The notes beneath the pieces were generated by a model, which saw nothing but the letters and a program-made list of their open reading frames with translations, did not search any database and was not told where the DNA came from. A DNA stretch of 64,000 bases from a virus. Its lineage: Duplodnaviria > Heunggongvirae > Uroviricota > Caudoviricetes. Within the stretch, counting starts at the first letter, position 1, and the number at the start of each line of letters is the position of its first letter. Location: IMG/VR virus record IMGVR_UViG_3300035703_000003. One strand, 5' to 3'. Made by a program: the position numbers and the translations under genes. Below, piece after piece: positions 1 to 12,374 of the stretch.

Positions 1-71
1 TGACGGTTGGTTACGATCCAACGCTACCGAGTCCACAGCTCAGTGTGCTACCATTATCACTACATCAGGAT

Positions 72-147
72 TGGCCCTTGGGGACGGAATCGAACCGCCG
101 ACACCATGCTCTTCAGGCATGTGTTCTACCAACTGAACTACCCAAGG
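72..147 (-). tRNA. tRNA-Phe (anticodon GAA), CCA encoded
   Basis: Hand-folded cloverleaf on the reverse complement: acceptor CCTTGGG/CCCAAGG, D-arm GTTCAGTTGGTAGAAC, anticodon loop CTGAAGA, T-loop TTCGATT, 3' CCA. Confidence 0.8.
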
Positions 148-154
148 ATAAACT

Positions 155-240
155 GGTGGGGATGGATGGATTCGAACCAACTCACCTCTACAGGAACGGA
201 TTTACAGTCCGCCGCGACTCTCCAACTTCGCCGCATCCCC
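155..240 (-). tRNA. tRNA-Tyr (anticodon GTA), long variable arm, CCA encoded
   Basis: Acceptor GGGGATG/CATCCCC, anticodon stem GCGGA/TCCGT with loop CTGTAAA, about 14-nt variable arm, T-loop TTCGAAT. Confidence 0.75.
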
Positions 241-254
241 AAATTTAAACAGTA

Positions 255-470
255 ACCTTTTGCACCTGCACGATGTTGAATCGAACTCATCGTTTAGGGA
301 CTCGAACCCTGCTTCATTTACTCTCTTGCACCAGCAAGATCCAACTTATAGTTGGTCTAAAATGCTACTCCTGGTGGGGAACGATCCCACACGGAAAGTC
401 TCGAACCTTTCCGTAACCTCTTGCAGGAGCGGGCCTTGGGACTTTCGAGATCCTTTAGGCTTTGTCTATT
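255..470 (-). ncRNA. Unresolved tRNA-like or structured RNA region (1-2 elements)
   Basis: Two T-loop-like motifs (GGGACTCGAACCC at 297-309; TCTCGAACC at 399-407) and an AACGATCCC hairpin (376-390), but I could not close canonical acceptor stems by hand. Confidence 0.3.
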
Positions 471-546
471 TGGTGCTTCTAGGAAGAATCGAACTTCCTT
501 CTAGACGCTTATCGGGCGCCTGCCTTTCCATTAGACAGTTAGAAGC
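471..546 (-). tRNA. tRNA, anticodon GAT (Ile) as folded; C at position 33 is atypical
   Basis: Acceptor GCTTCTA/TAGAAGC, T-arm GGAAG-TTCGATT-CTTCC, anticodon stem GGCGC/GCGTC with loop CCGATAA, CCA encoded. D-stem register is irregular. Confidence 0.5.
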
Positions 547-551
547 ATTAT

Positions 552-628
552 TGGTCCCGCATACGGGTTTCGAACCCGTTTCTCCGACTTGAAAGGCCAG
601 CGACCATCACCGAGTAGTCCTATGCGAG
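552..628 (-). tRNA. tRNA-Glu (anticodon TTC)
   Basis: Acceptor CTCGCAT/ATGCGGG (one G-U), T-arm ACGGG-TTCGAAA-CCCGT, anticodon stem CTGGC/GTCGG (two G-U) with loop CTTTCAA, CCA encoded. Confidence 0.6.
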
Positions 629-635
629 ATATATT

Positions 636-711
636 TGGTTGTCCAGGGTGGGATTGAACCACCGACCCCAGTCTTATCAGGACTGTGCTACTACCACTGA
701 GCTACTGGACA
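636..711 (-). tRNA. tRNA-Ile (anticodon GAT)
   Basis: Acceptor TGTCCAG/CTGGACA, D-arm GCTCAGTGGTAG, anticodon stem CAGTC/GACTG with loop CTGATAA, T-arm GGTGG-TTCAATC-CCACC, CCA encoded. Confidence 0.75.
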
Positions 712-1045
712 ATAAACTCTATTTTTACAAAAGGCAGCGAGGGGATATGCTCCGGGTCCCTAAACCTGCTCCTCTTTTCGTTACACTAGGGAATGTAACT
801 ACTTCTGCTTACTTGCTCTGCCTATTCTAGAAATAGAGTAATTGGTAGCGACATTTGGTAACGCTCCAAATCTTCAGCCTTATGAGAGCCGAGTCGGCAC
901 TTGCCGTGTCGCCAAAATATTATTAGCTTGCTGCTAGATTTTTACTCTGCCGTTATCGCCGGACATTTCATCTTCTAACACGCCCATTTGAGTTTGTTTA
1001 TAGTGGTTACTCGCAGTCTCGTTCCGCATTTCCACTTTAGCCTAA

Positions 1046-1079
1046 TAAAAAACCCTCCTAGTATCTCTACTGGAGGGTG
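1046..1079 (-). terminator. Rho-independent terminator (minus orientation)
   Basis: CCCTCC...GGAGGG hairpin followed by a T-run on the minus strand (A-run on plus), downstream of the 1290..2051 gene. Confidence 0.5.
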
Positions 1080-1289
1080 TCATTGCGTTTATGTGTATCT
1101 ACACTTATCCGCTATAACCCTCCGAGAACTCAAAGAGATACTCGTGGCGTTCAAAACGCTTAATGCTAATCATGTGTTTAGTATTGTGAGTCATCTCTTG
1201 ATTTCCTTTTGCTTATGTTAGTAATATAGTGCTTTTATTTATCATCGTCAACCGTTTTCTTTGACAATTTAGACGTATTACAAAAAAAA

Positions 1290-2051
1290 TTAGTCTTCTG
1301 TTTGAACAAAACTTGTTCTGCATATCCTAGGGTAATTTGTTAAATTTTCATAGGCTTCGTGTGGATCAGTAAGAAGTTTGCCGACAGTTATAGGTCCGTA
1401 GTTAGTGATACGTTTAGAATCTATATTATACCCTTTGTCTTCTATTGCTTCTCTATTATCAGTTACAAATTTTACAAATTCTTTGTCCCTGTTCCAATCA
1501 TGAGTAATCGCATTACCTCGCAGAGGAAATTGAACAAAAAACTTAGGTAAAACTTCGCCTCTTGTACTTGCGTTTGCTAATAGTGATATGTCTTTCTCGT
1601 CATATGCATTGGTTATATTAGATCCATAAGGGTTTGTCGATATTATGTTTTCATACATGTAGATACACAGATCTCCAAACTCGGCTTCTCCATTACAGTG
1701 TTCATAATCGTCGTCTGTGAACTTTTTTATTAAATCCTTACTTACAGGTAATAAATTAATATAAGAAACCGACAAACTATATTCTGTAAATTCCGGGTAT
1801 AACTTGTACGGTGTTTCGTTGATGCGAATCATACATAAATGCGGGACTCTAATAATTTTTTCCCACAATGGAATAATGTTTTGTATTGCATCCATACTAG
1901 TGTCAATTCGCCATTCAATAGTTGCTTTTTCAATGTCAGTAGTAGGACGTCTAATATTATAATTTACACTATCAGATACATCGCTAGGATTGTCATATAT
2001 AAAACCGTCGTAATCAACTATATCTGTTAATCCAACTACGAATTTTAACAT
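1290..2051 (-). CDS. Hypothetical protein, paralog of the adjacent 2055..2858 gene
   Basis: 253-aa ORF. Shares N-terminal K(F)V(V/I)GLTD and a central EKATIEW(R/Q)(I/L)D motif with the neighbouring ORF. Confidence 0.6.
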   Translation of the reverse strand: MLKFVVGLTDIVDYDGFIYDNPSDVSDSVNYNIRRPTTDIEKATIEWRIDTSMDAIQNIIPLWEKIIRVPHLCMIRINETPYKLYPEFTEYSLSVSYINLLPVSKDLIKKFTDDDYEHCNGEAEFGDLCIYMYENIISTNPYGSNITNAYDEKDISLLANASTRGEVLPKFFVQFPLRGNAITHDWNRDKEFVKFVTDNREAIEDKGYNIDSKRITNYGPITVGKLLTDPHEAYENLTNYPRICRTSFVQTED

Positions 2052-2054
2052 AAA

Positions 2055-2858
2055 TTAATCCTCTACTATATCAATTCGACAAACTTTATTATAAGTTTGT
2101 ATTTTTTCAAATGCGTCCTCATAATTACCAATTAAATCTCCTATAACAAGACCACCTGTTTTTGTTTTGTTATCTGATATATAGTATCCTTTAGATTCCA
2201 GAACGTCGTTGTTACTCAGCATCCAACTTTTCTGACTAATTGACATTGTCTTAGTTGGTGTTCTCGCAGAATTAGAAACAAAACTTATCGTAAATGCAGG
2301 GTATACTACACGTTCTGCAGGACTGTCTGATAACAAGTCTGTTGTGTTCATAGTTTGTGCATAGTCTAATGTGCTACGTATATTTATCCCATTACGTTCA
2401 TATGAACTTACACTATCGAGTTCTAAACTACCGTAGACTGGGATTCTATCTGTTGATATATTATCGTAGTCGGTATCTGTATATAATGGAAAATCAATGC
2501 CTGTAACAGGAATCAGCGTTGTTAGTTCTACAAAAATATCTGCATTTACTAATCTAGTTTCAGAAGAAATCCAGCTAGTATAAATCACTGACATCATATG
2601 CAACCTATTAGATTTAATGATTTTGTATACATTTATTAAGTTAGTAACAGCAGGTAATGTGTAGTCTAACTGCCATTCAATAGTTGCCTTTTCGATTGAT
2701 AATTCGATATTATTCATTAAATTATACGCATCTCGATCAGGATTTAGATCATCTAACTCAGGTCTAGCTGATTCATCTAGTAACCTATAATTAGGAATAA
2801 AACTTTCACTTTCTAAATCTGTCAGACCTATTACAAACTTCGCAGACATATTTTTCAC
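2055..2858 (-). CDS. Hypothetical protein, paralog of 1290..2051
   Basis: 267-aa ORF abutting 1290..2051 with the shared motifs listed above. Confidence 0.6.
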   Translation of the reverse strand: MKNMSAKFVIGLTDLESESFIPNYRLLDESARPELDDLNPDRDAYNLMNNIELSIEKATIEWQLDYTLPAVTNLINVYKIIKSNRLHMMSVIYTSWISSETRLVNADIFVELTTLIPVTGIDFPLYTDTDYDNISTDRIPVYGSLELDSVSSYERNGINIRSTLDYAQTMNTTDLLSDSPAERVVYPAFTISFVSNSARTPTKTMSISQKSWMLSNNDVLESKGYYISDNKTKTGGLVIGDLIGNYEDAFEKIQTYNKVCRIDIVED

Positions 2859-2886
2859 CTTTACTGTTTAGTAAATGTATTTAGTA

Positions 2887-2960
2887 TGGTGCCGGTAGAG
2901 AGAATCGAACTCCCGTCAGCTGATTACTAATCAGCTGCTAAACCACTCAGCTATACCGGC
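2887..2960 (-). tRNA. tRNA, anticodon loop TTAGTAA (anticodon AGT as read, Thr-type; A34 unusual)
   Basis: Acceptor GCCGGTA/TACCGGC, anticodon stem AGCTGA/TCAGCT, T-arm GGGAG-TTCGATT-CTCTC, CCA encoded. Confidence 0.5.
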
Positions 2961-2965
2961 ATTAT

Positions 2966-3040
<75 letters not shown>

Positions 3041-3124
3041 AATGCCTACGCCCGAAAGCGTAGGGTGCTGGTCCTCTGTGTTCTTATCTTGGGATCACAG
3101 CGGGGGTGTTAAACTTATACAAGT

Positions 3125-3637
3125 TTAATTCTCGTATAACGATTCGTAATCATCGTCTGATTCGTAATCGTCGTTGTCGACGTATTCTTGCTCTTCTGGA
3201 GCAGAACCATACGCTTTGTAATAGTCTTCATTTTCTTTTAGTATACGAAGATCAGTACCAGTTAATGCAAACTTAAGTTGAAAAAACTCATCGTAATTAT
3301 ACAACTCAGTGATAAACCAAAGTGTTCCACAACCTCCACCTGCTTTTTTAATAACACCTGTTTCGATTGATAGATCTTCAATGGCTCTTTTTAACTTAGC
3401 ACCATAGCTAGTAATGATACGTAAAAATTGTTTCTTACTTCCTAGCTTGTTCTTATCTTCTTCTGTTAATGGTGTGATGATTGCAGTGTTAGAATCATCA
3501 ATTACTACTAAGCAGTTTTTAACTTTGATACTGCCTTTAGTGTGGTTGCTATCTGGAGTTTCTTTGGTAGTCCAAGGAACGCTACAGTTTACGTGGTTTA
3601 CATAAAATGTTTCGCCACGGAACTTAAGAACCCACAT
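3125..3637 (-). CDS. Hypothetical protein with strongly acidic C-terminal tail
   Basis: 170-aa ORF. C-terminus is EEQEYVDNDDYESDDDYESLYEN. No recognisable catalytic motif. Confidence 0.55.
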   Translation of the reverse strand: MWVLKFRGETFYVNHVNCSVPWTTKETPDSNHTKGSIKVKNCLVVIDDSNTAIITPLTEEDKNKLGSKKQFLRIITSYGAKLKRAIEDLSIETGVIKKAGGGCGTLWFITELYNYDEFFQLKFALTGTDLRILKENEDYYKAYGSAPEEQEYVDNDDYESDDDYESLYEN

Positions 3638-3741
3638 AGGGATAGTATCATCTTCTAAGTGTTTTTTGTTAAAATGAAAAACTACATCTTTACAAGCATA
3701 TTCAATCTACGACATTTTATTCTCCTAATTGTTCGTATAGT

Positions 3742-3816
3742 TGGTGCGCTCTACGGGTAACGATCCCGTCTACTAAGGGTTAGAATCCTCTGACAATCCA
3801 TCTTGTCCAAGAGCGC
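3742..3816 (-). ncRNA. Atypical tRNA-like element (T-loop ATCGTTA; anticodon arm ambiguous, CUA or UCU)
   Basis: CCA encoded, acceptor GCGCTCT/AGAGCGC pairs perfectly, D-arm GACA-AGATGGAT-TGTC, T-stem ACGGG/CCCGT. The T-loop is non-canonical and the anticodon stem has two mismatches whichever register is used. Confidence 0.4.
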
Positions 3817-3822
3817 AAATAA

Positions 3823-3896
3823 TGGCGAGGGTGCAGAGAGTCGAACTCTGGCTTGCGGTTTTGGAGACCGCCGTGCTACCATAACACTTCACCGAC
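3823..3896 (-). tRNA. tRNA-Trp-like (anticodon CCA); acceptor stem has two mismatches
   Basis: T-arm CAGAG-TTCGACT-CTCTG, anticodon stem GCGGT/ACCGC with loop CTCCAAA, D-arm GTGT-TATGGTA-GCAC. Acceptor is GTCGGTG vs CACCCTC (T.T and C.C at pairs 2 and 3). Confidence 0.5.
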
Positions 3897-3902
3897 ATAA
3901 AT

Positions 3903-3978
3903 TTGGAGCGGGCGAAGGGGATCGAACCCTCGACAATCTGCTTGGAAGGCAGGAGCTCTACCGCTGAGCTACACCCGC
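3903..3978 (-). tRNA. tRNA-Gly (anticodon TCC)
   Basis: Acceptor GCGGGTG/CGCCCGC, D-arm GCTCAGCGGTAGAGC, anticodon loop CTTCCAA, T-arm GAGGG-TTCGATC-CCCTT, CCA encoded. Confidence 0.7.
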
Positions 3979-4272
3979 ATTGAATCTCTATATAAACCGG
4001 TTACTATCATCCGGAGTTACTATTTCGTTGCAACAGATTAGTTTTAGACGTTAAACGACACTCCATGTGGATTTTGTTTCGGTAACCACTCAACCATATC
4101 CCCAACTTCTCTGACCCCGGAATGCACGTCGCAGGCAGCTGGCCCTTTTCGCTAGGTCTAAACTAGTTTACTTCAGTAGTCTTGTTTGGCAGTTGCAACA
4201 AACGGTCCCGCTTACCGAAAGTAGTAGACCGCTTTAGCAGTCTTGTTGTCGTTGCTCAACACTACAATTTAT

Positions 4273-4349
4273 TGGTCCGAGTAGCAGGATTTGAACCCAC
4301 GACATCCTGGTCCCAAACCAGGCGCTCTACCAAACTGAGCTACACTCGG
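4273..4349 (-). tRNA. tRNA-Pro (anticodon TGG)
   Basis: Acceptor CCGAGTG/TACTCGG, D-arm GCTCAGTTTGGTAGAGC, anticodon stem CCTGG/CCAGG with loop TTTGGGA, T-loop TTCAAAT, CCA encoded. Confidence 0.75.
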
Positions 4350-4357
4350 ATACATTT

Positions 4358-4436
4358 TGGTCTGGGTGAAAGGATTTGAACCTTCGACCTCTCGCTTCCA
4401 AGGCGAGCACTCTAACACAGGCTGAGCTACACCCAG
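4358..4436 (-). tRNA. tRNA, anticodon TGG (second Pro-type copy)
   Basis: Acceptor CACCCAG/CTGGGTG, anticodon stem CTCGC/GCGAG with loop CTTGGAA, T-loop TTCAAAT, CCA encoded. Confidence 0.65.
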
Positions 4437-4443
4437 ATATTAT

Positions 4444-4519
4444 TGGCTGGGAAGGTAGGATTCGAACCTACAACCAACGGATTCAAAGTCCGCTACTCTA
4501 CCAATTGAGCTACTTCCCA
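4444..4519 (-). tRNA. tRNA-Gln (anticodon TTG)
   Basis: Acceptor TGGGAAG/CTTCCCA, D-arm GCTCAATTGGTAGAGT, anticodon stem GCGGA/TCCGT with loop CTTTGAA, T-arm GTAGG-TTCGAAT-CCTAC, CCA encoded. Confidence 0.75.
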
Positions 4520-4527
4520 TCAACCTT

Positions 4528-4604
4528 TGGTGCGGATGGAGGGACTCGAACCCCCAACATCTGCGTTCTAAGCGCAGCGACTCTACCAATTGGCCTACAT
4601 CCGC
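4528..4604 (-). tRNA. Class-I-shaped tRNA with anticodon TAG (Leu codon CUA), short variable arm
   Basis: Acceptor GCGGATG/CATCCGC, discriminator A, D-region GGCCAATTGGTAGAGT, anticodon stem CTGCG/CGCAG with loop CTTAGAA, 5-nt variable loop, CCA encoded. Confidence 0.6.
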
Positions 4605-4610
4605 ATAATT

Positions 4611-4694
4611 TGGAGGTCGGTGCGTGAATCGAACACGCTACTTTTCAGTGCTATGGATTTGCAATCCAACCCCTTACCATCCGGGCCACCGACC
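4611..4694 (-). tRNA. tRNA (84 nt, long variable region); anticodon loop probably TTGCAAA (GCA), assignment uncertain
   Basis: Acceptor GGTCGGT/ACCGACC pairs perfectly, T-arm GCGTG-TTCGATT-CACGC, CCA encoded. Internal arms could not be folded unambiguously. Confidence 0.45.
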
Positions 4695-4702
4695 GTTGTA
4701 TT

Positions 4703-4777
4703 TGGTGCTGGTAGAGAGAATCGAACTCCCAATCTACTCATTACAAGTGAGTTGCCTTACCATTGGGCCATACCAGC
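4703..4777 (-). tRNA. tRNA-Thr (anticodon TGT)
   Basis: Acceptor GCTGGTA/TACCAGC, anticodon stem ACTCA/TGAGT with loop CTTGTAA, T-arm GGGAG-TTCGATT-CTCTC, CCA encoded. Confidence 0.75.
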
Positions 4778-5011
4778 GATATATTCGTATACTTCTTCGT
4801 ATGTCTTAAACATACGTGTTCCGTGTTTGCTAACAACTCTTACAGAGGAGCCAAAGCACTGAACTAAACCAAAACCAGGAAACCTACCGTTGCCTGGTCG
4901 TCTGTTATTCCATCTATTACGTTTACGCACAGGTTGTGTATAAACGTGTTCTATTCCTAATAGTTCTCCACATCTTGTGTAAAACTGTTCTTTTTCTTCT
5001 GATGTTTTCAT
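4757..5011 (-). CDS. Small basic hypothetical protein inside the tRNA cluster (3' end overlaps tRNA-Thr)
   Basis: 84-aa ORF rich in R/K/N (RKRNRWNNRRPGNGRF). Its context is otherwise non-coding, so the call is tentative. Confidence 0.3.
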   Translation of the reverse strand: MKTSEEKEQFYTRCGELLGIEHVYTQPVRKRNRWNNRRPGNGRFPGFGLVQCFGSSVRVVSKHGTRMFKTYEEVYEYIAGMAQW

Positions 5012-5062
5012 ATTGTCCTCTCACATATCTTTACGGTTTTAATGGCTTAACCGAAAACCTAT

Positions 5063-5137
5063 TGGAGCGGGTAACGGGATTCGAACCCGTGACCTGGTGC
5101 TTGGCAAGCAGCCGCTCTACCCCTGAGCTACACCCGC
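5063..5137 (-). tRNA. tRNA-Gly (anticodon GCC)
   Basis: Acceptor GCGGGTG/TACCCGC, D-arm GCTCAGGGGTAGAGC, anticodon loop TTGCCAA (one C.C in the stem), T-arm ACGGG-TTCGAAT-CCCGT, CCA encoded. Confidence 0.65.
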
Positions 5138-5144
5138 ATTTATT

Positions 5145-5220
5145 TGGTGGACCCTAGCGGGATCGAACCGCTGACCTACGGCTTGCAAAACCGTCGCTCT
5201 CCCAACTGAGCTAAGAGCCC
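5145..5220 (-). tRNA. tRNA-Ala (anticodon TGC)
   Basis: Acceptor GGGCTCT/AGGGTCC (two G-U), D-arm GCTCAGTTGGGAGAGC, anticodon stem ACGGT/GCCGT with loop TTTGCAA, T-arm AGCGG-TTCGATC-CCGCT, CCA encoded. Confidence 0.7.
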
Positions 5221-5659
5221 GTATTCTATTTATAAACTACGTTTAGAAGATACACATAAACTTAGCATAACGCTCTCCGGACTAAGCCTCTGTTAGTATA
5301 TATGTGTATCGTCAAAACGTAATGTTTTGCCTAGCTTGAGATTACAGCGTAGGACGGGAGCCTTTGAGCATTACCGTTGGCCTTGCGAGCCACGTTCTCT
5401 CGTTATCCACAGAAGCCTGTTACGGTCATCCTGTATCTCCCAATGGTGCCTTTTTTGGAGAGTGGCGTTTCTCTCGTCGCACGTTGCTACTCGTCCTTCT
5501 ATCCTTCGTCTGCCTTGCGAGCAGTTCAGAGTCGCTAAACCCTTACGCTATCTTTCCGAACAACTACATCAGCCTTGCGAGCATCCGTAGACCACATTCT
5601 CTTTCGAGTGTGGCATTAACCACCTTTCACAACGTACCGGGACAGTCTTTCGCTTTTGT

Positions 5660-5730
5660 TTCAATAGTAGGAGTTGAACCTACAATCCATCGTTCTGAAT
5701 ACGATTGCATTACCGTTATGCAATATTGCG
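5660..5730 (-). ncRNA. tRNA-like element with anticodon loop ATTCAGA (anticodon UCA, would read UGA); acceptor weak, no CCA
   Basis: T-arm GTAGG-TTCAACT-CCTAC, 5-nt variable, anticodon stem ATCGT/ACGAT perfect, D-arm GCAT-AACGGTA-ATGC. Only 5 of 7 acceptor pairs form. Confidence 0.35.
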
Positions 5731-6181
5731 AACCTACTTCGATGTGCTGTCCCAGTTGCACCATATCTTGTTAGATACAGTATACAACACACCGACTGTC
5801 TTTTGCCTTGCGGGCTACTCAACGTCACTTCAAGTATCCGGGGCCTAACCCTTCCACTCTTGTAATGCTACTACGCCTTTCCTTGCGGGGTCAGACAGTG
5901 TAGCTACCTGTTAGTATTCTCCATTCGTTGCTTTGGCTGTATGCTGTTCGGGCGCCAACCCTCTTACTACTCACCGACCGGCTCTGTAGCTATCCTTTCG
6001 GACAACACACGCAACTTACTGGATACCGCCTTTCTACGGACGGGACTTGCTTTCGCATTGCGAGTCAAGTCTAACCCAGGCTTGTATAGCTGGACCATTG
6101 CTGGCGCAAGTTTATAGGAAACCTTGCTTTGGGTGCATTGCTGCACTTACCCTTAAGTTGGACGCTATACCGCCCATATAA

Positions 6182-6292
6182 ACTGTGTTTAAAACTATAC
6201 ATTGTGGAATCGAACCACCGAGCCGACCACAAGGTCGACCTGTTCCATAACATCGGCGTGGCCTACGCCTTATGTATAGTTTAAAACACAGT
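6182..6292 (-). ncRNA. Structured element: 22-bp perfect inverted repeat enclosing about 65 nt with a T-arm-like hairpin and two further hairpins
   Basis: ACTGTGTTTAAAACTATACAT (6182-6203) is the exact reverse complement of 6270-6291. The interior contains GTGG-AATCGAA-CCAC, CGACC-ACAA-GGTCG and GGCGT-GGCCT-ACGCC. Confidence 0.5.
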
Positions 6293-6346
6293 CATTACTA
6301 AATTTTCAAAGAGCGTATAAGCAACTTGTTTGCTGCTTATGTTCTT

Positions 6347-6375
6347 AATATAGTATGTGTTGCTGTCATTGTCAA
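6347..6375 (-). promoter_or_regulatory. Sigma70-type promoter TTGACA-N17-TATATT, minus strand, reading into the ncRNA locus
   Basis: Reverse complement reads TTGACAatgacagcaacacatacTATATT. It belongs to the repeated promoter-leader element 6301-6380. Confidence 0.6.
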
Positions 6376-6575
6376 CACCTTTTTTTATCTTTTTTTATTT
6401 AATTACTTGAGCCTGTTGCCACAACATCAACAGCATTATCTACAAATTTTCGGCCGTGTAGTTATGGACTTGCGTCCTTGGGGTAAGTCATTACAGTTAC
6501 TTGGAAGGATGCATTTCCTTTGTTACTACAGCCGCTAAACCGTAGCACCTTTCACTTACTGACACTCAAGTATTT

Positions 6576-6649
6576 TGGCGACCCTACGGGGACTCGAACC
6601 CCGTTCACCAGGTAGACAGCCTAGTGTAATACCCATATACCATAGGGCC
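6576..6649 (-). tRNA. tRNA-Asp (anticodon GTC)
   Basis: Acceptor GGCCCTA/TAGGGTC, anticodon stem CTAGG/CCTGG with loop CTGTCTA, T-arm CGGGG-TTCGAGT-CCCCG, CCA encoded. Confidence 0.65.
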
Positions 6650-6655
6650 AATTTA

Positions 6656-6746
6656 TGGCGGACACTCAGGGATTCGAACCCTGGGACGCCTTTCGACGCC
6701 GTCGGTTTTCAAGACCGGTGCAATAATCCATCTCTGCCAAGTGTCC
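6656..6746 (-). tRNA. tRNA-Ser (anticodon TGA), long variable arm
   Basis: Acceptor GGACACT/AGTGTCC, anticodon loop CTTGAAA, variable-arm hairpin GGCGTC-GAAA-GGCGTC, T-arm CAGGG-TTCGAAT-CCCTG, CCA encoded. Confidence 0.7.
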
Positions 6747-6749
6747 GTA

Positions 6750-6835
6750 TTGCTTTAGACTGGGCTGTTTGCAGCTTTAACCCGGCTGGTTACGGGTGCG
6801 TTCCTCACAAGGGCCGATTATATCACAGTCTAAAC
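6750..6835. ncRNA. Short inverted-repeat-bounded element (9-bp IR, TTTAGACTG/CAGTCTAAA), possible small RNA
   Basis: IR flanks about 63 nt lying between two tRNA genes. No tRNA fold was found. Confidence 0.25.
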
Positions 6836-6836
6836 T

Positions 6837-6912
6837 TGGTTGCGTTGGGTGGGACTCGAACCCACGATCTTTTGGTTATGAGCCAAACGAGATGCCGCTT
6901 CTCTACCCCGCA
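6837..6912 (-). tRNA. tRNA with anticodon CAT (Met, fMet or Ile2 type); acceptor has two G.A mismatches
   Basis: T-arm GTGGG-TTCGAGT-CCCAC, anticodon stem TTTGG/CCAAA with loop CTCATAA, D-arm GAGA-AGCGGCA-TCTC. Acceptor is TGCGGGG vs CAACGCA. Confidence 0.5.
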
Positions 6913-6927
6913 ATAGTCCTATTATAA

Positions 6928-7015
6928 TGGCGGAGCGACTGGGAGTCGAACCCAGTGAGGGATTGCTCCCTCTACAGATTAGCAATCTGCTGCATTACCA
7001 TCCTGCCCCCGCTCC
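6928..7015 (-). tRNA. tRNA-Ser (anticodon GCT), long variable arm
   Basis: Acceptor GGAGCGG/TCGCTCC, anticodon stem GCAGA/TCTGT with loop TTGCTAA, variable hairpin GAGGGA-GCAA-TCCCTC, T-arm CTGGG-TTCGACT-CCCAG, CCA encoded. Confidence 0.7.
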
Positions 7016-7022
7016 GTATATT

Positions 7023-7098
7023 TGGCTCCCTGACGTGGGCTCGAACCACGGACCCGATGATTAACAGTCATCTGCTCTACCAACTGAGCTATCAGGAA
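7023..7098 (-). tRNA. tRNA-Asn (anticodon GTT)
   Basis: Acceptor TTCCTGA/TCAGGGA, D-arm GCTCAGTTGGTAGAGC, anticodon stem GATGA/TCATC with loop CTGTTAA, T-arm CGTGG-TTCGAGC-CCACG, CCA encoded. Confidence 0.75.
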
Positions 7099-7329
7099 AC
7101 ACTATGCTTTTGGCTCTACTCAGCGTCATCCAGAGCGATTTAACTAGAGGGGTGCTTTTCTCCAGTACCGTTATTCTTGTGGCTTACGGAGTTATCCTCC
7201 TGCACTAGTTTATTCTATAAATACACGATGATAAAAAAGACTTGGTCTATTATATTACCGTGTATTATTGTTGTCAGCTTTTTTCTAGCTGTAAGCAATC
7301 TTTTTACCACATGGCATAATCATCAAATG

Positions 7330-7697
7330 CTGTTGGAAATACTTCACAGCACTGAATAATTCAATTGCTCGTTCTACTTACACATACACCCCAGCATTTC
7401 TGCGTAGTCCGCAAAGTGTTGGGTGGCCTACCCTCATTCACAGGATGTATGTGAAAATAGAATCGTTGTCTCTACTTACAAGTATGTTAGTCTGTCTTTG
7501 AAACAGCGAGCGCCCGTCGGCTTTTTACATAGGTCAACCCAACCACGCACGGAGTCGAACCGTGCTACTCCCATTTCTAACATACATGTAAGTAGAGATT
7601 TGATAATGTATGTTGGTTGCATACATCGTCTACTTACAATCCCTATCATCGCTTTCGCTAAGGAATGTGATAAGCTATAATAGCTTACCGTAATACG
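7330..7697 (-). ncRNA. Second structured non-coding locus downstream of the duplicated promoter-leader element (T-arm-like CACGG-TTCGACT-CCGTG, nested hairpins)
   Basis: No credible ORF. Inverted repeats are TGTAAGTAGAG/CTCTACTTACA and ATGTATG...CATACAT. It lies downstream of the 7698-7777 element, which is homologous to 6301-6380. Confidence 0.35.
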
Positions 7698-7777
7698 TCT
7701 AAATTGTCAAAGAGCGTGTAAACAACTTCTTGCTTACTGTGTTAACTTAGCGTCTTGTTTTTGCTTTGTCAACAACT
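7698..7777 (-). repeat. Promoter-leader repeat, copy 2 (homologous to 6301-6380)
   Basis: Shared blocks are CAAAGAGCGT(A/G)TAA(G/A)CAACTT...TTGCT...GTCAACA. Reverse complement gives TTGACA-N17-TAAGTT. Confidence 0.5.
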
Positions 7778-7836
7778 TTTTTCTTTTTTGTTTGAGTGCT
7801 TCAATCTTTGTTACAAGTTTCTGCGTCCCTTACTAG

Positions 7837-7868
7837 TTATATATAGTGTATGATGTCTTGCCTGTCAA
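7837..7868 (-). promoter_or_regulatory. Sigma70-type promoter TTGACA-N17/18-TATATA (minus strand)
   Basis: Reverse complement reads TTGACAggcaagacatcatacacTATATA and shares the ...ACACTATAT core with the other early promoters. Confidence 0.5.
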
Positions 7869-7875
7869 GTATTAT

Positions 7876-7935
7876 TTTGTCTTTTTTTTTGCCATTAAAA
7901 AAGCCCCGCAGCTTTCGCTTGGGGCCTTGGTGTTC
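7876..7935 (-). terminator. Terminator-like GC hairpin with flanking T/A runs
   Basis: GCCCCGCAGCTTTCGCTTGGGGC hairpin. On the minus strand it is followed by TTTTTTAATGGCAAAAAAAAA. Confidence 0.4.
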
Positions 7936-8294
7936 GAACTTTATAAGTTGTTCAGCTACCTCGGCCCGCCTGCACGGAATCGACACTAGGATTGCCCCCT
8001 AGTGACCATGTATTCTGTGCTGTGGTTCCGCATGTAATCATTGAACTGTTTATTCCTTATATAAGTTTATTTATCATCTGAGATAAAATTATCTTACACT
8101 TTTATTTATCATCTTGAAAATATTTAGTCTGCGTCCGGCAACTGCAAAGCCTGAGAAAGCGTTTATCGGTTTTACCAGCAGTGTTAGGACTTCTTACTTC
8201 GAATTATCTTATCGGTCCATTTTTACGCCTTAAGTAGAGAATCTCAATTATAAACTACAAGACGCAGACTAAAACTTTGGTGCCCTAAGGCGTG

Positions 8295-8735
8295 TTACAT
8301 TCCTAGTTTATACGAGCTGTTGCTCACAGTAAACGATTGCTTCCAAGACCATTCGTCTAGAACAAGTTGGTTAAACACATCGTCTTCAAGTTCGATTACG
8401 TCTTCAACACTTAGTTCAAGCATACGAGCTGCACGATTGTAATCACTTTCGTAACTACGTGGTGCAGAAGGGATACCTTTAATCTCTTTAATTTTTTCTA
8501 GATCACCTGTGTTTGCTAGTTTTGCATTTTCTTTTGTGATCTTAACAGTAAGTGTTTTGTAATCGTTAACTGCTTCATCGTATTCAGCAATGTGCTTAAT
8601 CTTGTTTTGACGAACAATCATTAGGAGCTCGTCTTTTTTCATCTTTACACTACGCATAGCGTTTCTCCCATTCATACGCATATTAAACTTCCTTAAAAGA
8701 ATATTTGGTGCCCCCGGTCGGACTCGAACCGACAC
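8295..8735 (-). CDS. Hypothetical protein
   Basis: 146-aa ORF in the minus-strand gene series, ending next to a tRNA. Confidence 0.55.
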   Translation of the reverse strand: MSVRVRPGAPNILLRKFNMRMNGRNAMRSVKMKKDELLMIVRQNKIKHIAEYDEAVNDYKTLTVKITKENAKLANTGDLEKIKEIKGIPSAPRSYESDYNRAARMLELSVEDVIELEDDVFNQLVLDEWSWKQSFTVSNSSYKLGM

Positions 8736-8782
8736 TATGCGGATTTTGAATCCGCCGACTCTACCAATTGGCCTACAGAGGC
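8706..8782 (-). tRNA. Class-I-shaped tRNA with anticodon CAA (Leu codon UUG)
   Basis: Same scaffold as 4528..4604 and 10426..10502: acceptor 3' strand CGGGGGC, discriminator A, D-region GGCCAATTGGTAGAGT, T-arm GTCGG-TTCGAGT-CCGAC. Anticodon stem GCGGA/TCCGC with loop TTCAAAA, 5-nt variable loop. Confidence 0.6.
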
Positions 8783-9069
8783 GATATTAAAACAGAGAGG
8801 AAAGAGTGAGTAATAAAGTTCTAGCAAAGTGCATGTAGCGTGGTATACAGACCTACTTTTGCAAAAAACAAATCGCAATCTACAATGCTTATATTTCCGA
8901 TTATCAACATGCAGTGTCAATTAAGACGAATATAATAAAATCGGAACACATAGCTGGAGACCATAAACGATCATGTTATGCAAGTAACGCTTGCCCGCCT
9001 CTATTCTCTTTTCTCTTTCCTACTCTGGGTAGTTTCGGGCAAGTTGCCTTGCCCTGGGTCTACCAAAAC

Positions 9070-9669
9070 TTATTCTACAATACCTGCACGAGCAAGGAAA
9101 TGCTCTGCTTCATCGTCAAGCACAATTGTAGTGCTTACGTTAAGCTCTAGCAACGAGTCTTGCAGTGCAGTCTTTACTCGCTTTAGACGAGCGAGTTCGG
9201 CTTTGAATTCTTCGATCTTCTCTTTATCGAAGATGTTAGTAGTGACAGTGTCGTCACCGAAACGACCGTAAACGTCTGCTTTGTCACGACCTTTAATCTT
9301 GCCTAGCTTACCGACAAGAACATCGTTAGCTACTGCAGGCTCTAGCTTGCTTAGACGCCCGTATAGCTGCATGTCTTTGTCTAGCATTGCTACATCAGCT
9401 AGCAAGCTATCAATACCGGAAGCGGCGTTAGCATGGGCTACTGCCTTGCGAATTTCGTAAAGAACGCCTAGCAGCTTGCCACGAGTAGCAAGATGTGTCT
9501 CAAAGCGGTTAGTAGCTTCGGACACCTTTTCGCTAGGCTTTTCGAATTCGTTAACCGAAACTTCTGTGCCTAGATCTAGTGTGCCTAGCATTTCATTAAT
9601 TGCGTGTTGTAGTGCGTTTGCTTTACGAAGTGAGATTTCCATTACTTTGTCCTTTGTGTTCGTTTTCAA
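9070..9669 (-). CDS. Hypothetical protein
   Basis: 199-aa ORF with overlapping genes upstream and downstream, consistent with operonic packing. Confidence 0.55.
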   Translation of the reverse strand: MKTNTKDKVMEISLRKANALQHAINEMLGTLDLGTEVSVNEFEKPSEKVSEATNRFETHLATRGKLLGVLYEIRKAVAHANAASGIDSLLADVAMLDKDMQLYGRLSKLEPAVANDVLVGKLGKIKGRDKADVYGRFGDDTVTTNIFDKEKIEEFKAELARLKRVKTALQDSLLELNVSTTIVLDDEAEHFLARAGIVE

Positions 9670-10246
9670 TTTTCTTTGCGATTACTTTGTGTAGACCTGG
9701 ATTAATAACTAGCATTTGTGTTACAACGTTTTCACGAATATAGTTTCTAATGTATGAAGTGTCAAGATTTGATTTGTCTTCAACCCAACTTACATTTTTT
9801 CGTTTACACCAATCAACAAACTCGTGCTTTCTGTTTAACCTAAACGGCCTAATAACGTTTTCATTTTGGTAAGGAATAATTTTACCCTCACCGTGCATAC
9901 TTGACCAAATCCACGTTTCTACACAATCATCCAAATGATGACAAGTGATAACAGGCTTTTGCCAGGCATTTAAAACTTTATAACGTTCGTTCCTCCAGTG
10001 TTCTTCTTGGCTTACGCCCTTAGGAACAACAGTGTTGATATACGAAGTGTATAGTTTTAGTTTAGTATCGTCTGCATACTGCAAAAGAAACTTGTGTGCT
10101 TGTTCACTTGTTTCTGTGCCGTGATGCACAAATTGTAGAGTAATACGATGATTTCTTTTTAGAAAATCAACAATAGCCATACTATCAACGCCGCCACTGC
10201 AAGCAATTACAACGTCTCTGGGTAGTTTGCTTTGGACTTTAATCAT
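9623..10246 (-). CDS. tilS: TilS-like tRNA(Ile)-lysidine synthetase catalytic domain (PP-loop ATPase)
   Basis: PP-loop SGGVDS near the N-terminus. Blocks FVHHGT, CHHLDDCVETW and WVEDKSNLDTSYIRNYIR resemble the TilS N-domain motifs (HVHHGL, QHLDDQCETF, WIEDESNQDDSYDRNFLR) as I recall them. It lies immediately downstream of two CAU tRNAs. Confidence 0.7.
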   Translation of the reverse strand: MIKVQSKLPRDVVIACSGGVDSMAIVDFLKRNHRITLQFVHHGTETSEQAHKFLLQYADDTKLKLYTSYINTVVPKGVSQEEHWRNERYKVLNAWQKPVITCHHLDDCVETWIWSSMHGEGKIIPYQNENVIRPFRLNRKHEFVDWCKRKNVSWVEDKSNLDTSYIRNYIRENVVTQMLVINPGLHKVIAKKIENEHKGQSNGNLTS

Positions 10247-10262
10247 CGCATTACTCTAGTTT

Positions 10263-10338
10263 GGTGGAAGGACTGGGACTCGAACCCAGATAGTTACGTT
10301 TATGAGACGTATGCATTCACCAATTATACTATCCTTCC
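10263..10338 (-). tRNA. tRNA with anticodon CAT (copy A; Met, fMet or Ile2)
   Basis: Acceptor GGAAGGA/TCCTTCC perfect, anticodon stem TACGT/ACGTA with loop CTCATAA, T-arm CTGGG-TTCGAGT-CCCAG, CCA encoded. Confidence 0.7.
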
Positions 10339-10342
10339 GATT

Positions 10343-10419
10343 TGGTAGGGGATACCGGACTTGAACCGATAACCTGCCGATTATGAGTCGGACGCTCTAA
10401 CCAATTGAGCTAATCCCCC
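10343..10419 (-). tRNA. tRNA with anticodon CAT (copy B; Met, fMet or Ile2)
   Basis: Acceptor GGGGGAT/ATCCCCT, D-arm GCTCAATTGGTTAGAGC, anticodon loop CTCATAA, T-arm ATCGG-TTCAAGT-CCGGT, CCA encoded. Confidence 0.7.
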
Positions 10420-10425
10420 TAACTT

Positions 10426-10502
10426 TGGTGCCCCCGGTCGGACTCGAACCGACACTACGCAGATTTTAAGTCTGCTGACTCTACCTATTGGCCTACAAGG
10501 GC
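10426..10502 (-). tRNA. Class-I-shaped tRNA with anticodon TAA (Leu codon UUA)
   Basis: Same scaffold as 8706..8782 (acceptor 3' strand CGGGGGC, D-region GGCCAATAGGTAGAGT, identical T-arm). Anticodon stem GCAGA/TCTGC with loop CTTAAAA, 5-nt variable loop. Confidence 0.6.
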
Positions 10503-10509
10503 GTAGTTC

Positions 10510-10592
10510 TGGTGCGGGCACCCGGACTCGAACCGGGACGCATTGAGCAAGAGATTTTAAGTCTCTCGTGGCTACCATTTCACCATGCCCGC
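10510..10592 (-). tRNA. tRNA-Leu (anticodon TAA), class II with long variable arm
   Basis: Acceptor GCGGGCA/TGCCCGC, anticodon stem AGAGA/TCTCT with loop CTTAAAA, about 11-nt variable region, T-arm CCCGG-TTCGAGT-CCGGG, CCA encoded. Confidence 0.65.
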
Positions 10593-10605
10593 ATAAGTTG
10601 TTTTT

Positions 10606-10682
<77 letters not shown>

Positions 10683-10697
10683 AGCAAAAAACAACTT

Positions 10698-10991
10698 TTA
10701 TATCTGAACAGGTAATCGACCAGTTACGCTATACATTTTCTTGATAATAGCATTAACGTCGGATTCTGTCAAGTATCCACGAACACCTTTGTTACCGGTA
10801 ATTCCAGGAAGCTCAACAAATCCAAATTCAACTCCATCATCGGAGCCGTAAGTCGCAATTTCAAAGAGATCTGAGTCTTTGCCCATACCGTCGTCAATGA
10901 CACTTAGTTGGTAGGATCCAAAACCAAGTAGAACTTGATTTCCGTTCCTCCATTTATCTTTTTGAATCATTGTAAAGTCTGACAGTTTCAT
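10698..10991 (-). CDS. Hypothetical protein
   Basis: 97-aa ORF. Confidence 0.45.
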   Translation of the reverse strand: MKLSDFTMIQKDKWRNGNQVLLGFGSYQLSVIDDGMGKDSDLFEIATYGSDDGVEFGFVELPGITGNKGVRGYLTESDVNAIIKKMYSVTGRLPVQI

Positions 10992-11385
10992 TTTGTATCT
11001 CTTGTTACAGTATTATTTATATCTTAATTTTCACGGTTTGTCAATATTATTCTTCTGTAACAGTAACTTTTTTATCTTTTGTTTCAGGATCGAACGTCAT
11101 ACTTTGTACAATTGCCTTTACATCATTTTTATCTGTTGCAACTACTACAACTTCATTATCAACACGAATGTAATATGCCATTAGTTTGACTCCTGACCGT
11201 AAGGGATGAACTCAACAGTCCACTTACCATCAGACCAAACGTTAAGGTACTTCATCCAGTATTTGTGCATACCGTATTTGTTTTTGTGAAGCCGAGTGAG
11301 GTAGCTTAGTGTGCCGCTGTGAATCATCTTGTTCATCCTCTGTTTTCTACTCTATATACATAGCACGTAGGTTGAGTGCTGTCAA

Positions 11386-11601
11386 TCAAAAAGGTTCTGG
11401 TTCTTCCACCTGGACGTATTCTTCTTCGGTCAGTCCTGCGATGTAGCTTTCGATGGTGTCCGAAAGGTGCATTTCGATGTCTTCCTGTAGGCTTTCCAGT
11501 GTGTCTTTGGGGAACTCAGGCAGTCCCGCTCTTAGTGTGTTCATAGCACTTTGGACCGCAAGGTCTACCAGAGTGTTGAGTCGTTGTTCAGAAACTACCA
11601 T
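11386..11601 (-). CDS. Small acidic hypothetical protein
   Basis: 71-aa ORF, acidic (EEEYVQVEEPEPF). Confidence 0.4.
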   Translation of the reverse strand: MVVSEQRLNTLVDLAVQSAMNTLRAGLPEFPKDTLESLQEDIEMHLSDTIESYIAGLTEEEYVQVEEPEPF

Positions 11602-11616
11602 TTTGGTTATCCTTTT

Positions 11617-11991
11617 CTACCATTTAATTCCAAGAGCCGCAAGTTCAGCTGGCGAAAGTTTGCTGATAGCGGTCAGCCGCAGATCAGCCTTACGCTTTTC
11701 GGCAGCTTCACGAGCAAGTCGCACAGCATCTTCTTTCTTATGACGTTTCCACCATGCTTCAACGTGTCCACGCTTTACACCAGCTTCTTTCCAGTCGATC
11801 CGTGCCAGCAGCCCATCAAGACCGCCAACAATCACACCTTCTTCGGCAGCAGTGAAGACGCCGCAAAGTGTAGCTTCGAAAGATTCGATATCCATCCCGT
11901 GGCGGGTTTCTTTACGAGGGGCATCCCAATCATCAGATCTGCAAGGCATTTTGTATCTCCTTATTTCGTATAGACGAAGTGCTTGTTCCAC
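11617..11991 (-). CDS. Hypothetical protein
   Basis: 124-aa ORF. Confidence 0.45.
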   Translation of the reverse strand: MEQALRLYEIRRYKMPCRSDDWDAPRKETRHGMDIESFEATLCGVFTAAEEGVIVGGLDGLLARIDWKEAGVKRGHVEAWWKRHKKEDAVRLAREAAEKRKADLRLTAISKLSPAELAALGIKW

Positions 11992-12374
11992 CGACCAACT
12001 TTGATGTCAGTGTAGAACGCAATGTGGAAGTAATCAGTCATGCTGTCGCTCTCGTCGAACCAGTCCGTGCCACGCATTGCAGCAAGAAGTTCGTTAAACA
12101 TCGAGCGGATCTTACCTTTGTAGTGGTCGTTGATCCAGTAAGTGTTAACACTGTAATGACCGTCGACAGGGTAAAAACGCTCATTGCGGCGTTCAGCAAC
12201 TTCGAGGTTAGACTTGTTAGCTTCACCAATAAGGTCAAGTTTGCCTTCAGTGATCGTCACAACAAGCGAGGAATGGTTATCAACACTGATCGAGCCTTTC
12301 ATGCCATACTTTTTCAGCACAGCTTTGATGGCCGGAGCCTTAGCACGTTTCATCTCTTGCGACACATAAGCCAT
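11961..12374 (-). CDS. Hypothetical basic protein
   Basis: 137-aa ORF located directly downstream of the promoter at 12409-12437. Confidence 0.55.
   Translation of the reverse strand: MAYVSQEMKRAKAPAIKAVLKKYGMKGSISVDNHSSLVVTITEGKLDLIGEANKSNLEVAERRNERFYPVDGHYSVNTYWINDHYKGKIRSMFNELLAAMRGTDWFDESDSMTDYFHIAFYTDIKVGRWNKHFVYTK

Follow-up and report, generated by a model that had tools for sequence, protein, structure and literature searches.

Here we describe a structured RNA locus in a 64,000-nucleotide (nt) stretch of DNA from an uncultured tailed phage (IMG/VR record IMGVR_UViG_3300035703_000003; this whole stretch is called the window below). The locus occupies positions 5230-6376 and lies inside an 11-kb array at the start of the window that contains 30 tRNA genes, all of them on the minus strand. 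Its central element is a copy of GOLLD, a large structured RNA family of phage and bacterial genomes. A preliminary description of this DNA, made from its letters alone, had seen here a promoter-driven, non-coding and highly structured region with a repeated motif of structural significance; all of this stood, but the RNA is not of a new kind, since Rfam assigns it to GOLLD. In the direction of transcription, the locus contains the following features:

6347..6375, minus strand: sigma-70-type promoter, with a -35 element TTGACA at 6375..6370, a 17-nt spacer and a -10 element TATATT at 6352..6347
6317..6340, minus strand: hairpin at the predicted 5' end of the transcript, with a 7-bp stem (AUAAGCA-10 nt-UGCUUAU) read from the sequence
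6181..6293, minus strand: module A, a tRNA-like RNA of 111 nt with a 21-bp terminal stem, inner hairpins and a T-arm
5796..6177, minus strand: 5' domain of GOLLD, its less conserved half, outside the Rfam model and defined by alignment and RNAalifold
5333..5795, minus strand: region of GOLLD under the Rfam model RF02032, comprising the pre-linker hairpin, the linker and the conserved 3' domain
5658..5730, minus strand: tRNA-shaped insert in the GOLLD linker, called by ARAGORN as 'tRNA-SeC, anticodon tca' and scored at 48.2 bits by the Rfam tRNA model
5238..5321, minus strand: module B, a second long hairpin, between GOLLD and tRNA-Ala
5063..5220, minus strand: tRNA-Ala(UGC) and tRNA-Gly(GCC), directly downstream of module B

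The Rfam match to RF02032 has a score of 193.7 bits, against a gathering threshold of 150 (E 8.7e-54), and runs over model positions 1-416 of 416 without truncation. The preliminary description had allowed for the outcome that Rfam would find only ordinary tRNAs in this region; instead, 5333..5795 is assigned to GOLLD. The families that it had listed for an Rfam/Infernal scan, namely transfer-messenger RNA (tmRNA), RNase P RNA, 6S RNA, group I intron and retron msr, have no match at E<=10 over 5100-6600, where group II introns and ROOL are also without a match, or at E<=1 over 1-12000, and ARAGORN finds no tmRNA in the window. No further family of large RNAs shows up at E<=10 over this region. 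The scan that had been proposed thus did name a family, but none of those expected.

The RF02032 model spans only the conserved 3' part of GOLLD, and the remainder of the RNA, up to the promoter, was defined from relatives. A degenerate pattern of the 3' domain retrieved 120 IMG/VR stretches (referred to, where they need to be told apart, by L and a number), about 40 of which carry homologues of the whole region. Distant relatives (68-72% identical) keep positions ~200-1044 of the query, which correspond to 6177..5333 of the window, or ~845 nt, and the promoter-proximal 180 nt are common to the closest relatives only. An alignment of 19 non-redundant full-length copies was folded with RNAalifold, which predicted 205 pairs with a covariation term of -49.6 kcal/mol. 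Compensatory changes support 130 of these pairs, so that the covariation across related phages that the preliminary description had proposed to look for is indeed present. The compensatory pairs are found throughout the 5' domain (alignment columns 17-440) as well as in the part covered by Rfam, and they include long-range helices enclosing hundreds of nucleotides (columns 124-132/314-324, 483-491/626-635 and 636-644/786-794). Because the distant relatives conserve this span and the pairs in the 19-copy alignment extend across both domains, we take the RNA to be ~845 nt long, from 6177 to 5333. The locus is a GOLLD copy whose length and division into two domains agree with the description of the family (PMC12286853), and its whole 845-nt fold, the 5' domain included, is under structural selection in the tRNA arrays of jumbo phages. 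An nhmmer profile of the 5' domain also finds matches just upstream of the Rfam GOLLD in the published phages DSS3P8, MD18, DSS3_MAL1 and Phosso (E 1e-12 to 5e-24), and this type of 5' domain was therefore already present in published genomes.

The motif (C/G)CTTGCG(A/G)G, which had first drawn attention to the region, occurs exactly five times in the 64 kb, at 5381, 5513, 5573, 5806 and 5881, and all five copies are inside GOLLD (0.98 copies are expected, and none of 100 shuffles reaches five). Six copies of it (CCTTGCGAG) had been reported, three of them at 5570, 5803 and 5880, that is, 1-3 nt away from their actual positions. The sixth, at 6056, is a chance look-alike: it reads CATTGCGAG, which is off the pattern, and lies in a hairpin that is variable among relatives. 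On the RNA strand the motif is C(U/C)CGCAAGG, and each copy caps a hairpin with a five-base CGCAA loop. These loops are nearly invariant across the 19 sequences, and their stems covary:

5381..5389, minus strand: CUCGCAAGG hairpin with a CGCAA loop, 3' domain; pairs 884-896..887-893, the loop being invariant in 19 sequences
5513..5521, minus strand: CUCGCAAGG hairpin with a CGCAA loop, 3' domain; pairs 749-763..753-759
5573..5581, minus strand: CUCGCAAGG hairpin with a CGCAA loop, 3' domain; pairs 691-701..693-699, matching the Rfam consensus ggcuCGCAAggcc
5806..5814, minus strand: CCCGCAAGG hairpin with a CGCAA loop, 5' domain; pairs 421-431..423-429, with 422-430 found as both C-G and U-A
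5881..5889, minus strand: CCCGCAAGG hairpin with a (C)CGCAA loop, 5' domain; pairs 340-351 and 341-350

The RF02032 consensus contains one CGCAA hairpin that is aligned to a copy of the window and a second such loop that has no counterpart in this clade. The repeated TTCTCTCG hairpins of the preliminary description are real as two sequence copies (5395 and 5469), but these are single strands of two GOLLD elements and form no hairpins of their own; TTCTCTCG is not enriched in the window, with three occurrences against 1.03 expected and eight of 100 shuffles reaching three.

The same motif had been put forward as a processing or protein-binding site in a processed array of separate small stable RNAs that would be an enlarged counterpart of the T4 RNA species 1 and 2. 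Such an array would agree with the position of the locus among tRNA genes and with the behavior of modules A and B, which are separate units and mobile among relatives (see below). The 845 nt between the two modules, however, behave as one RNA that is held together by long-range helices with compensatory changes, a single Rfam model spans 463 nt of it end to end, and the motif copies are hairpin loops within the GOLLD fold. We consider an array of small RNAs a highly improbable description of the locus.

The region had also been said to contain no credible open reading frame (ORF), and this is borne out, as open frames in it are short or antisense to the RNA. A protein gene on the plus strand could nevertheless be imagined, because every relative has open frames antisense to GOLLD (76-223 codons), the window having a 136-codon frame at 5364-5774. 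These frames differ in length, frame and position from one relative to another, and length differences among relatives are mostly not multiples of three. Across the 19 relatives, the third codon position of the 136-codon frame is no more variable than the other two (column variability of 0.62, 0.61 and 0.49 at positions one, two and three), and a conserved protein-coding gene, which the preliminary description had recognized as the finding that would contradict it, is not seen in them. Stops would be rare on the antisense strand by composition, since it is pyrimidine-rich, and the compensatory RNA pairs account for the conservation. A plus-strand protein gene therefore has next to no chance of being the right explanation.

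According to later papers that cite Weinberg et al. (2009), GOLLD has been a described family since 2009, and its structure was solved in 2025 (PMC12286853). In the cryo-electron microscopy structure of GOLLD env-38 (PDB 9MEE), 14 RNA molecules form a protein-free closed cage with D7 symmetry, in which the 5' domains make the caps and the 3' domains the ring, while the linker points inward and sometimes holds a tRNA (PMC12286853). The 3' domain of the Streptococcus agalactiae GOLLD forms 8-, 10- and 12-mers (PMC12990946). Expression of GOLLD is stated, in work cited in PMC12286853, to rise during phage lytic growth. Proposed functions are to store or shield the embedded tRNA and to encapsulate other molecules (PMC12286853, PMC12990946). 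The RNA of the window is like the described GOLLD RNAs in its full-length model match, in its length of ~845 nt, in having a less conserved 5' domain and a conserved 3' domain with a linker between them, in its location in a phage tRNA island, in the tRNA-like insert of its variable linker, and in its CGCAA-type loops, which are present in the family consensus. By homology with env-38, it would fold without protein and multimerize into a closed cage with the insert inside. The tertiary and quaternary contacts in the solved structure are mainly A-minor interactions and kissing loops (PMC12286853), and because of this we infer a candidate role for the five CGCAA loops as conserved hairpin caps that present adenosines, which may be donated to A-minor contacts within or between the RNA molecules. 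Another RNA of this kind, ROOL, is also large, encoded by phages close to tRNA islands and assembled into a cage of RNA alone, with a disordered linker that points inward (PMC12286853), but its sequence and fold are unrelated, and Rfam finds no ROOL in the region scanned.

The insert at 5658..5730, which the preliminary description does not mention, sits in the unpaired linker of the GOLLD model. Pairing of its D, anticodon and T stems is essentially complete in 18 distinct relatives and is maintained through many compensatory changes; anticodon-stem mismatches are limited to one terminal mismatch in each of two relatives and one internal mismatch in a third. The acceptor stem is of a different nature: it has 5 bp in the window and 4-6 bp, never 7, in all 18 relatives, a mismatch at positions 1:72, 2:71 or both is present in every case, and a CCA is not encoded. 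By a rough register-tolerant check, 27 of the 29 other tRNAs of the window have at least seven consecutive acceptor pairs, in most cases followed by CCA. The 'anticodon' of the insert is UCA, UGA, UCU, CUU or UAG among relatives, some of which have 8-nt loops; in 39 distinct copies, 13 loops are Lys-like (CUCUUAA) and eight Arg-like (CUUCUAA), the others being odd. The insert thus departs from a canonical decoding tRNA in its acceptor stem, its lack of CCA and the variability of its loop.

On another view, the insert is released from GOLLD as a true opal-suppressor or selenocysteine tRNA and takes part in translation. Both ARAGORN and the Rfam tRNA model call it, its cloverleaf stems are intact, its 7-nt loop contains U33, and canonical Lys- and Arg-like loops are frequent in relatives. 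Its acceptor stem and missing CCA set it apart from nearly all other tRNAs of the window, however, and it has neither the 8/5 architecture nor the long variable arm of selenocysteine tRNAs. The stop codons of 40 long ORFs (TAA in 35, TGA in four and TAG in one) follow the standard genetic code, and a UGA-reading tRNA is not needed because UGA serves as a stop codon. A relative whose 3' half is ~99% identical, L027, has an 8-nt anticodon loop, CUUAUGAA, and other close relatives carry different triplets. For the pseudo-tRNA inside a mycobacterial GOLLD, no separate RNA was detected (PMC6582537). A translating suppressor tRNA is accordingly very unlikely. Because it combines a 5-bp acceptor stem and no CCA with a UCA 'anticodon' in a phage that stops at UGA, the insert is not an ordinary decoding tRNA; it would act as a structural or recognition module, and the linker tRNA is probably built so as not to mature normally. 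We also note a possible short helix that would close the linker, UUCGC/GCGAA, formed by 5725-5729 with 5647-5651 (alignment columns ~505-512 and 616-626) and present in L038, L083 and L022 as UU(U)GC(G)/(C)GCAA(A). Since this helix overlaps the first acceptor nucleotides, the helix and the acceptor pairing of the insert would be alternatives.

In some lineages the anticodon loop of the insert is a hot spot of mutation or selection. The window and L027 differ at nine positions of the 3' half, five of them in this loop, and L087 and L031 have 19 differences in 826 nt, again with five in the loop. Among six near-identical pairs (<=3.2% different outside the loop, with 25 differences in 2030 nt altogether), the loops differ in four, and in these pairs the loop changes ~30 times faster than its surroundings. 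A search in cis for a site complementary to the variable loop gave nothing consistent; the T-loop of the insert itself has three matches of 6-7 nt, which seem to be due to chance. A retron or a diversity-generating retroelement was also considered and rejected, as no reverse transcriptase is found among the 20 ORFs scanned and the variable patch is just 7-8 nt long. The mycobacterial GOLLD, which is likewise located within a large tRNA array, offers a precedent, with an internal element that was judged to be a pseudo-tRNA (PMC6582537) or a tRNA-Phe in J13/15 (PMC12990946) and for which the idea of 'inhibited storage' was proposed (PMC12990946). The GOLLD RNAs described here differ from it in that the loop sequence varies between near-identical relatives, and we found no report of such a change in the papers that we read.

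The long-stemmed element at 6182-6292, module A, had been described as a perfect 22-bp stem closing a core of roughly 65 nt with a T-arm-like hairpin. The element is real, although its arms are of 21 nt with one U-U mismatch (95% complementary) and its core is of 69 nt; the T-arm is present as GUGG-UUCGAUU-CCAC. In the predicted fold, with an energy of -50.6 kcal/mol and a z-score of -6.6, five helices meet at one junction: the long stem, a D-arm-like hairpin (GGCGU-AGGCC-ACGCC), a 4-bp mini hairpin with a loop of 4-5 nt in the place of the 'anticodon' arm, a 7-bp variable-arm-like hairpin and the T-arm, which abuts the 3' strand of the long stem in tRNA fashion. Module A is not a canonical tRNA, given its 21-bp terminal stem and the fact that neither ARAGORN nor Rfam calls a tRNA in it; it belongs to no Rfam family, and an Rfam search with module A alone at E<=10 returned noise only (a CRISPR repeat, ALIL, and a 15-nt T-loop match to tmRNA). 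The tRNA-like character that the preliminary description had considered for the region is thus limited to two of its elements, the linker insert and module A.

A covariance model of module A, built from five copies and searched in viral and metagenome contigs, finds nine distinct members, two of which have entirely different outer stems of ~21 bp. In the alignment fitted to this model, 95.4% of cells are paired, against 34-51% in slid controls, and 25 of the 41 pairs have changed on both sides. The model finds no second copy in the window, and the other long-stem hairpins of the window therefore do not belong to the family; weak matches to related loci, at 20-38 bits, are mostly those that any long hairpin would give. 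Cores seem to be exchangeable inside conserved stems: before GOLLD in L056 (5112-5303), the outer stem of module A (CACUGUGUUUAAAACUA...) surrounds a different core of ~135 nt with its own T-arm-like hairpin, and the module A core is found elsewhere, at 4365-4481, before tRNA-Met.

The preliminary description had included module A in one RNA locus with what follows it, and one may ask whether it is the 5' end of GOLLD or, alternatively, a YrlA-type bacterial Y RNA that tethers the Ro60 protein. In both the window and L113 it stands 4 nt from the start of GOLLD, and, like YrlA and other bacterial Y RNAs, which are also found in phages, it joins a tRNA-like module bearing T- and D-arm features to a long terminal stem (PMC4201824). 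In L056, L082/L093, L125, L168 and L170, on the other hand, the module precedes tRNA-Met, tRNA-Gln or tRNA-Val, and the place before GOLLD is taken in L056 by the different core mentioned above. The long stem of YrlA replaces the anticodon arm and its gene lies beside that of Ro60, while the stem of module A is at the acceptor position; there is no Rfam match to YrlA even at E<=10 and no TROVE domain among the 20 ORFs scanned. We give either identity very little chance. Because it is located at other array positions in relatives, module A is not part of GOLLD and is best described as an independent tRNA-like RNA resident in tRNA arrays, a candidate new family of small RNAs of such arrays in phages.

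Module B, which is absent from the preliminary description, has arms of 21 nt that are 90% complementary and a core of 42 nt (-28.5 kcal/mol, z = -4.0). It follows GOLLD in L056 and is located elsewhere in the array in L111; in L034, GOLLD is also flanked by long hairpins on both sides. The stems of modules A and B, with their 21-22 bp, are most likely processing or insulating elements that would separate GOLLD from its neighbors, with RNase III, whose double-stranded RNA substrates must offer some two helical turns, as a candidate enzyme; this reading comes from anatomy only and is the weakest inference of the explanation offered here. Alternatively, the stems may simply protect the ends of independent small RNAs.

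The promoter from which these elements would be transcribed, TTGACA-17-TATATT on the minus strand, was correctly identified in the preliminary description. It matches 11 of 12 consensus positions, is preceded by an A-rich tract and has a predicted transcription start at ~6340. Its hexamers (GTTGAC and CTATATTAA) are invariant in five relatives, and the spacer is fixed in length but variable in sequence. The stem of the hairpin at the predicted 5' end is retained in L113, where the first pair is G-C in place of A-U, and this hairpin may act as a 5'-end stabilizer. No terminator-like site was found on the minus strand between GOLLD and tRNA-Ala/tRNA-Gly, and these two tRNAs are probably co-transcribed with GOLLD. 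The conserved promoter would then drive, in this order, the 5' hairpin, module A, GOLLD, module B, tRNA-Ala and tRNA-Gly.

Taken as a whole, we regard the locus, with a probability of roughly 93%, as one transcription unit of a jumbo myovirus tRNA array that contains a two-domain, putatively cage-forming GOLLD with a structural or recognition insert and flanking modules. Several points weigh against this interpretation. The cage is proposed from a distant homologue, as the window sequence is far from that of env-38: nhmmer profiles of the 5' and 3' domains of this clade have no match in the env-38 sequence (taken from the supplement of the paper). The multimer may also be of another size, given the several assemblies of the S. 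agalactiae 3' domain (PMC12990946). Close gene spacing is normal in the array, and the position of modules A and B beside GOLLD may be meaningless. Finally, the canonical Lys- and Arg-like loops in many relatives hint at anticodon-dependent recognition in those lineages.

GOLLD is among the largest bacterial and phage RNAs without a known function. The family itself, its tRNA-array context, the CGCAA motif and the internal tRNA are already known, and so is the non-canonical nature of the insert, because the mycobacterial pseudo-tRNA is on record (PMC6582537). The hypervariable pseudo-anticodon loop and the tRNA-like module A without an Rfam family are modest side observations. A single copy such as that of the window adds little by itself; the value lies in the deep set of close relatives, and the hot spot in the loop makes the purpose of the embedded tRNA a testable question. 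One unlikely, though not far-fetched, idea is that the linker is a fast-diversifying display of anticodon loops, in the cage or released from it, that serves for example as a decoy or sponge, with the module A family as a processing or accessory partner. If this were true, the targets would be host enzymes or defenses that recognize tRNA anticodon loops.

A megablast search of the region against 50,697 phage records gave no match. Sensitive blastn revealed partial matches in four cultured-phage groups, represented by the roseobacter phages DSS3_MAL1, MD18 and DSS3P8 and the Sinorhizobium phage Phosso, and in each of the four Rfam finds GOLLD where the match lies. Identity in the 3' region is 67-77% within the blastn-aligned stretches, which cover 9-37% of the query, and the 5' domain is of the same type. 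A tRNA or tRNA-like insert occupies the same linker position in three of the four, DSS3P8 being the one in which none was found, and is annotated as tRNA-Arg in MAL1 and MD18. The roseophages differ from the window in having, 60-210 nt after GOLLD, a permuted two-piece tmRNA of alphaproteobacterial type, for which no equivalent was found in the window:

L001 2060-2476: tmRNA after GOLLD in DSS3_MAL1
L002 2214-2629: tmRNA after GOLLD in MD18
L004 2152-2538: tmRNA after GOLLD in DSS3P8

The roseophages are of ~147-150 kb and Phosso is of 469 kb, and these phages are not close relatives of the window phage at the protein level. Within the clade of the window, comparison with L027 (13777-14523) reveals a mosaic divergence, the 5' domain of GOLLD being ~82% and the 3' region ~99% identical, which suggests recombination between the two parts.

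The window comes from an uncultured jumbo myovirus. It encodes a T4-type large terminase, a gp15-like tail sheath stabilizer and a tail sheath protein that shares 46% identity with its counterpart in the Pseudomonas jumbo phage PA5oct, and many related contigs measure 280-520 kb. Scanned against Pfam, 20 ORFs yielded a PP-loop (TilS-like) ATPase, RpiB, a RecA-like protein, the terminase and other structural proteins, but no Ro60/TROVE domain or RNA-processing enzyme. Two giant minus-strand ORFs are located in the structural gene region, at 39143-47161 (2672 codons) and 51217-57033 (1938 codons). A scan of bacterial-genome contigs gave no usable host signal, with two contigs of metagenome-assembled genomes as the only hits (a 1.2-kb Rickettsiales contig and one of the BD1-7 clade).

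The remainder of the tRNA array has several features of its own. Most of its tRNA genes encode the 3' CCA and are spaced by only 5-9 nt. Five further minus-strand hairpins, at 7469-7598, 716-839, 10136-10258, 8118-8278 and 1051-1151, have arms of 18-22 nt and cores of 65-125 nt; their z values are between -3.4 and -5.5, except for -1.3 in the 8118 element, and none matches the module A model. The hairpin at 7469-7598 contains a T-arm-like CACGG-UUCGACU-CCGUG, and several of the five are conserved in L056, the closest relative. At 10595-10697, base pairing between the leader and the trailer of tRNA-Arg(UCU) (10606-10682) extends the acceptor stem by ~13 bp to a helix of ~22 positions, comparable in length to the stems of modules A and B. 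A gap of ~1.2 kb at 7099-8295, syntenic in L056, is free of tRNAs, sizeable ORFs and Rfam matches but has a promoter-like CTGACA-17-TATAAT at 7277..7249 (11 of 12 positions), and it could hold further RNAs. Inside the array, beside three tRNAs with CAU anticodons, lies the minus-strand ORF 9623-10246, which encodes a PP-loop ATPase domain (PF01171, E 2e-29) of the TilS (tRNA-Ile lysidine synthetase) family, and because of this proximity one of the three may be a lysidine-dependent tRNA-Ile.

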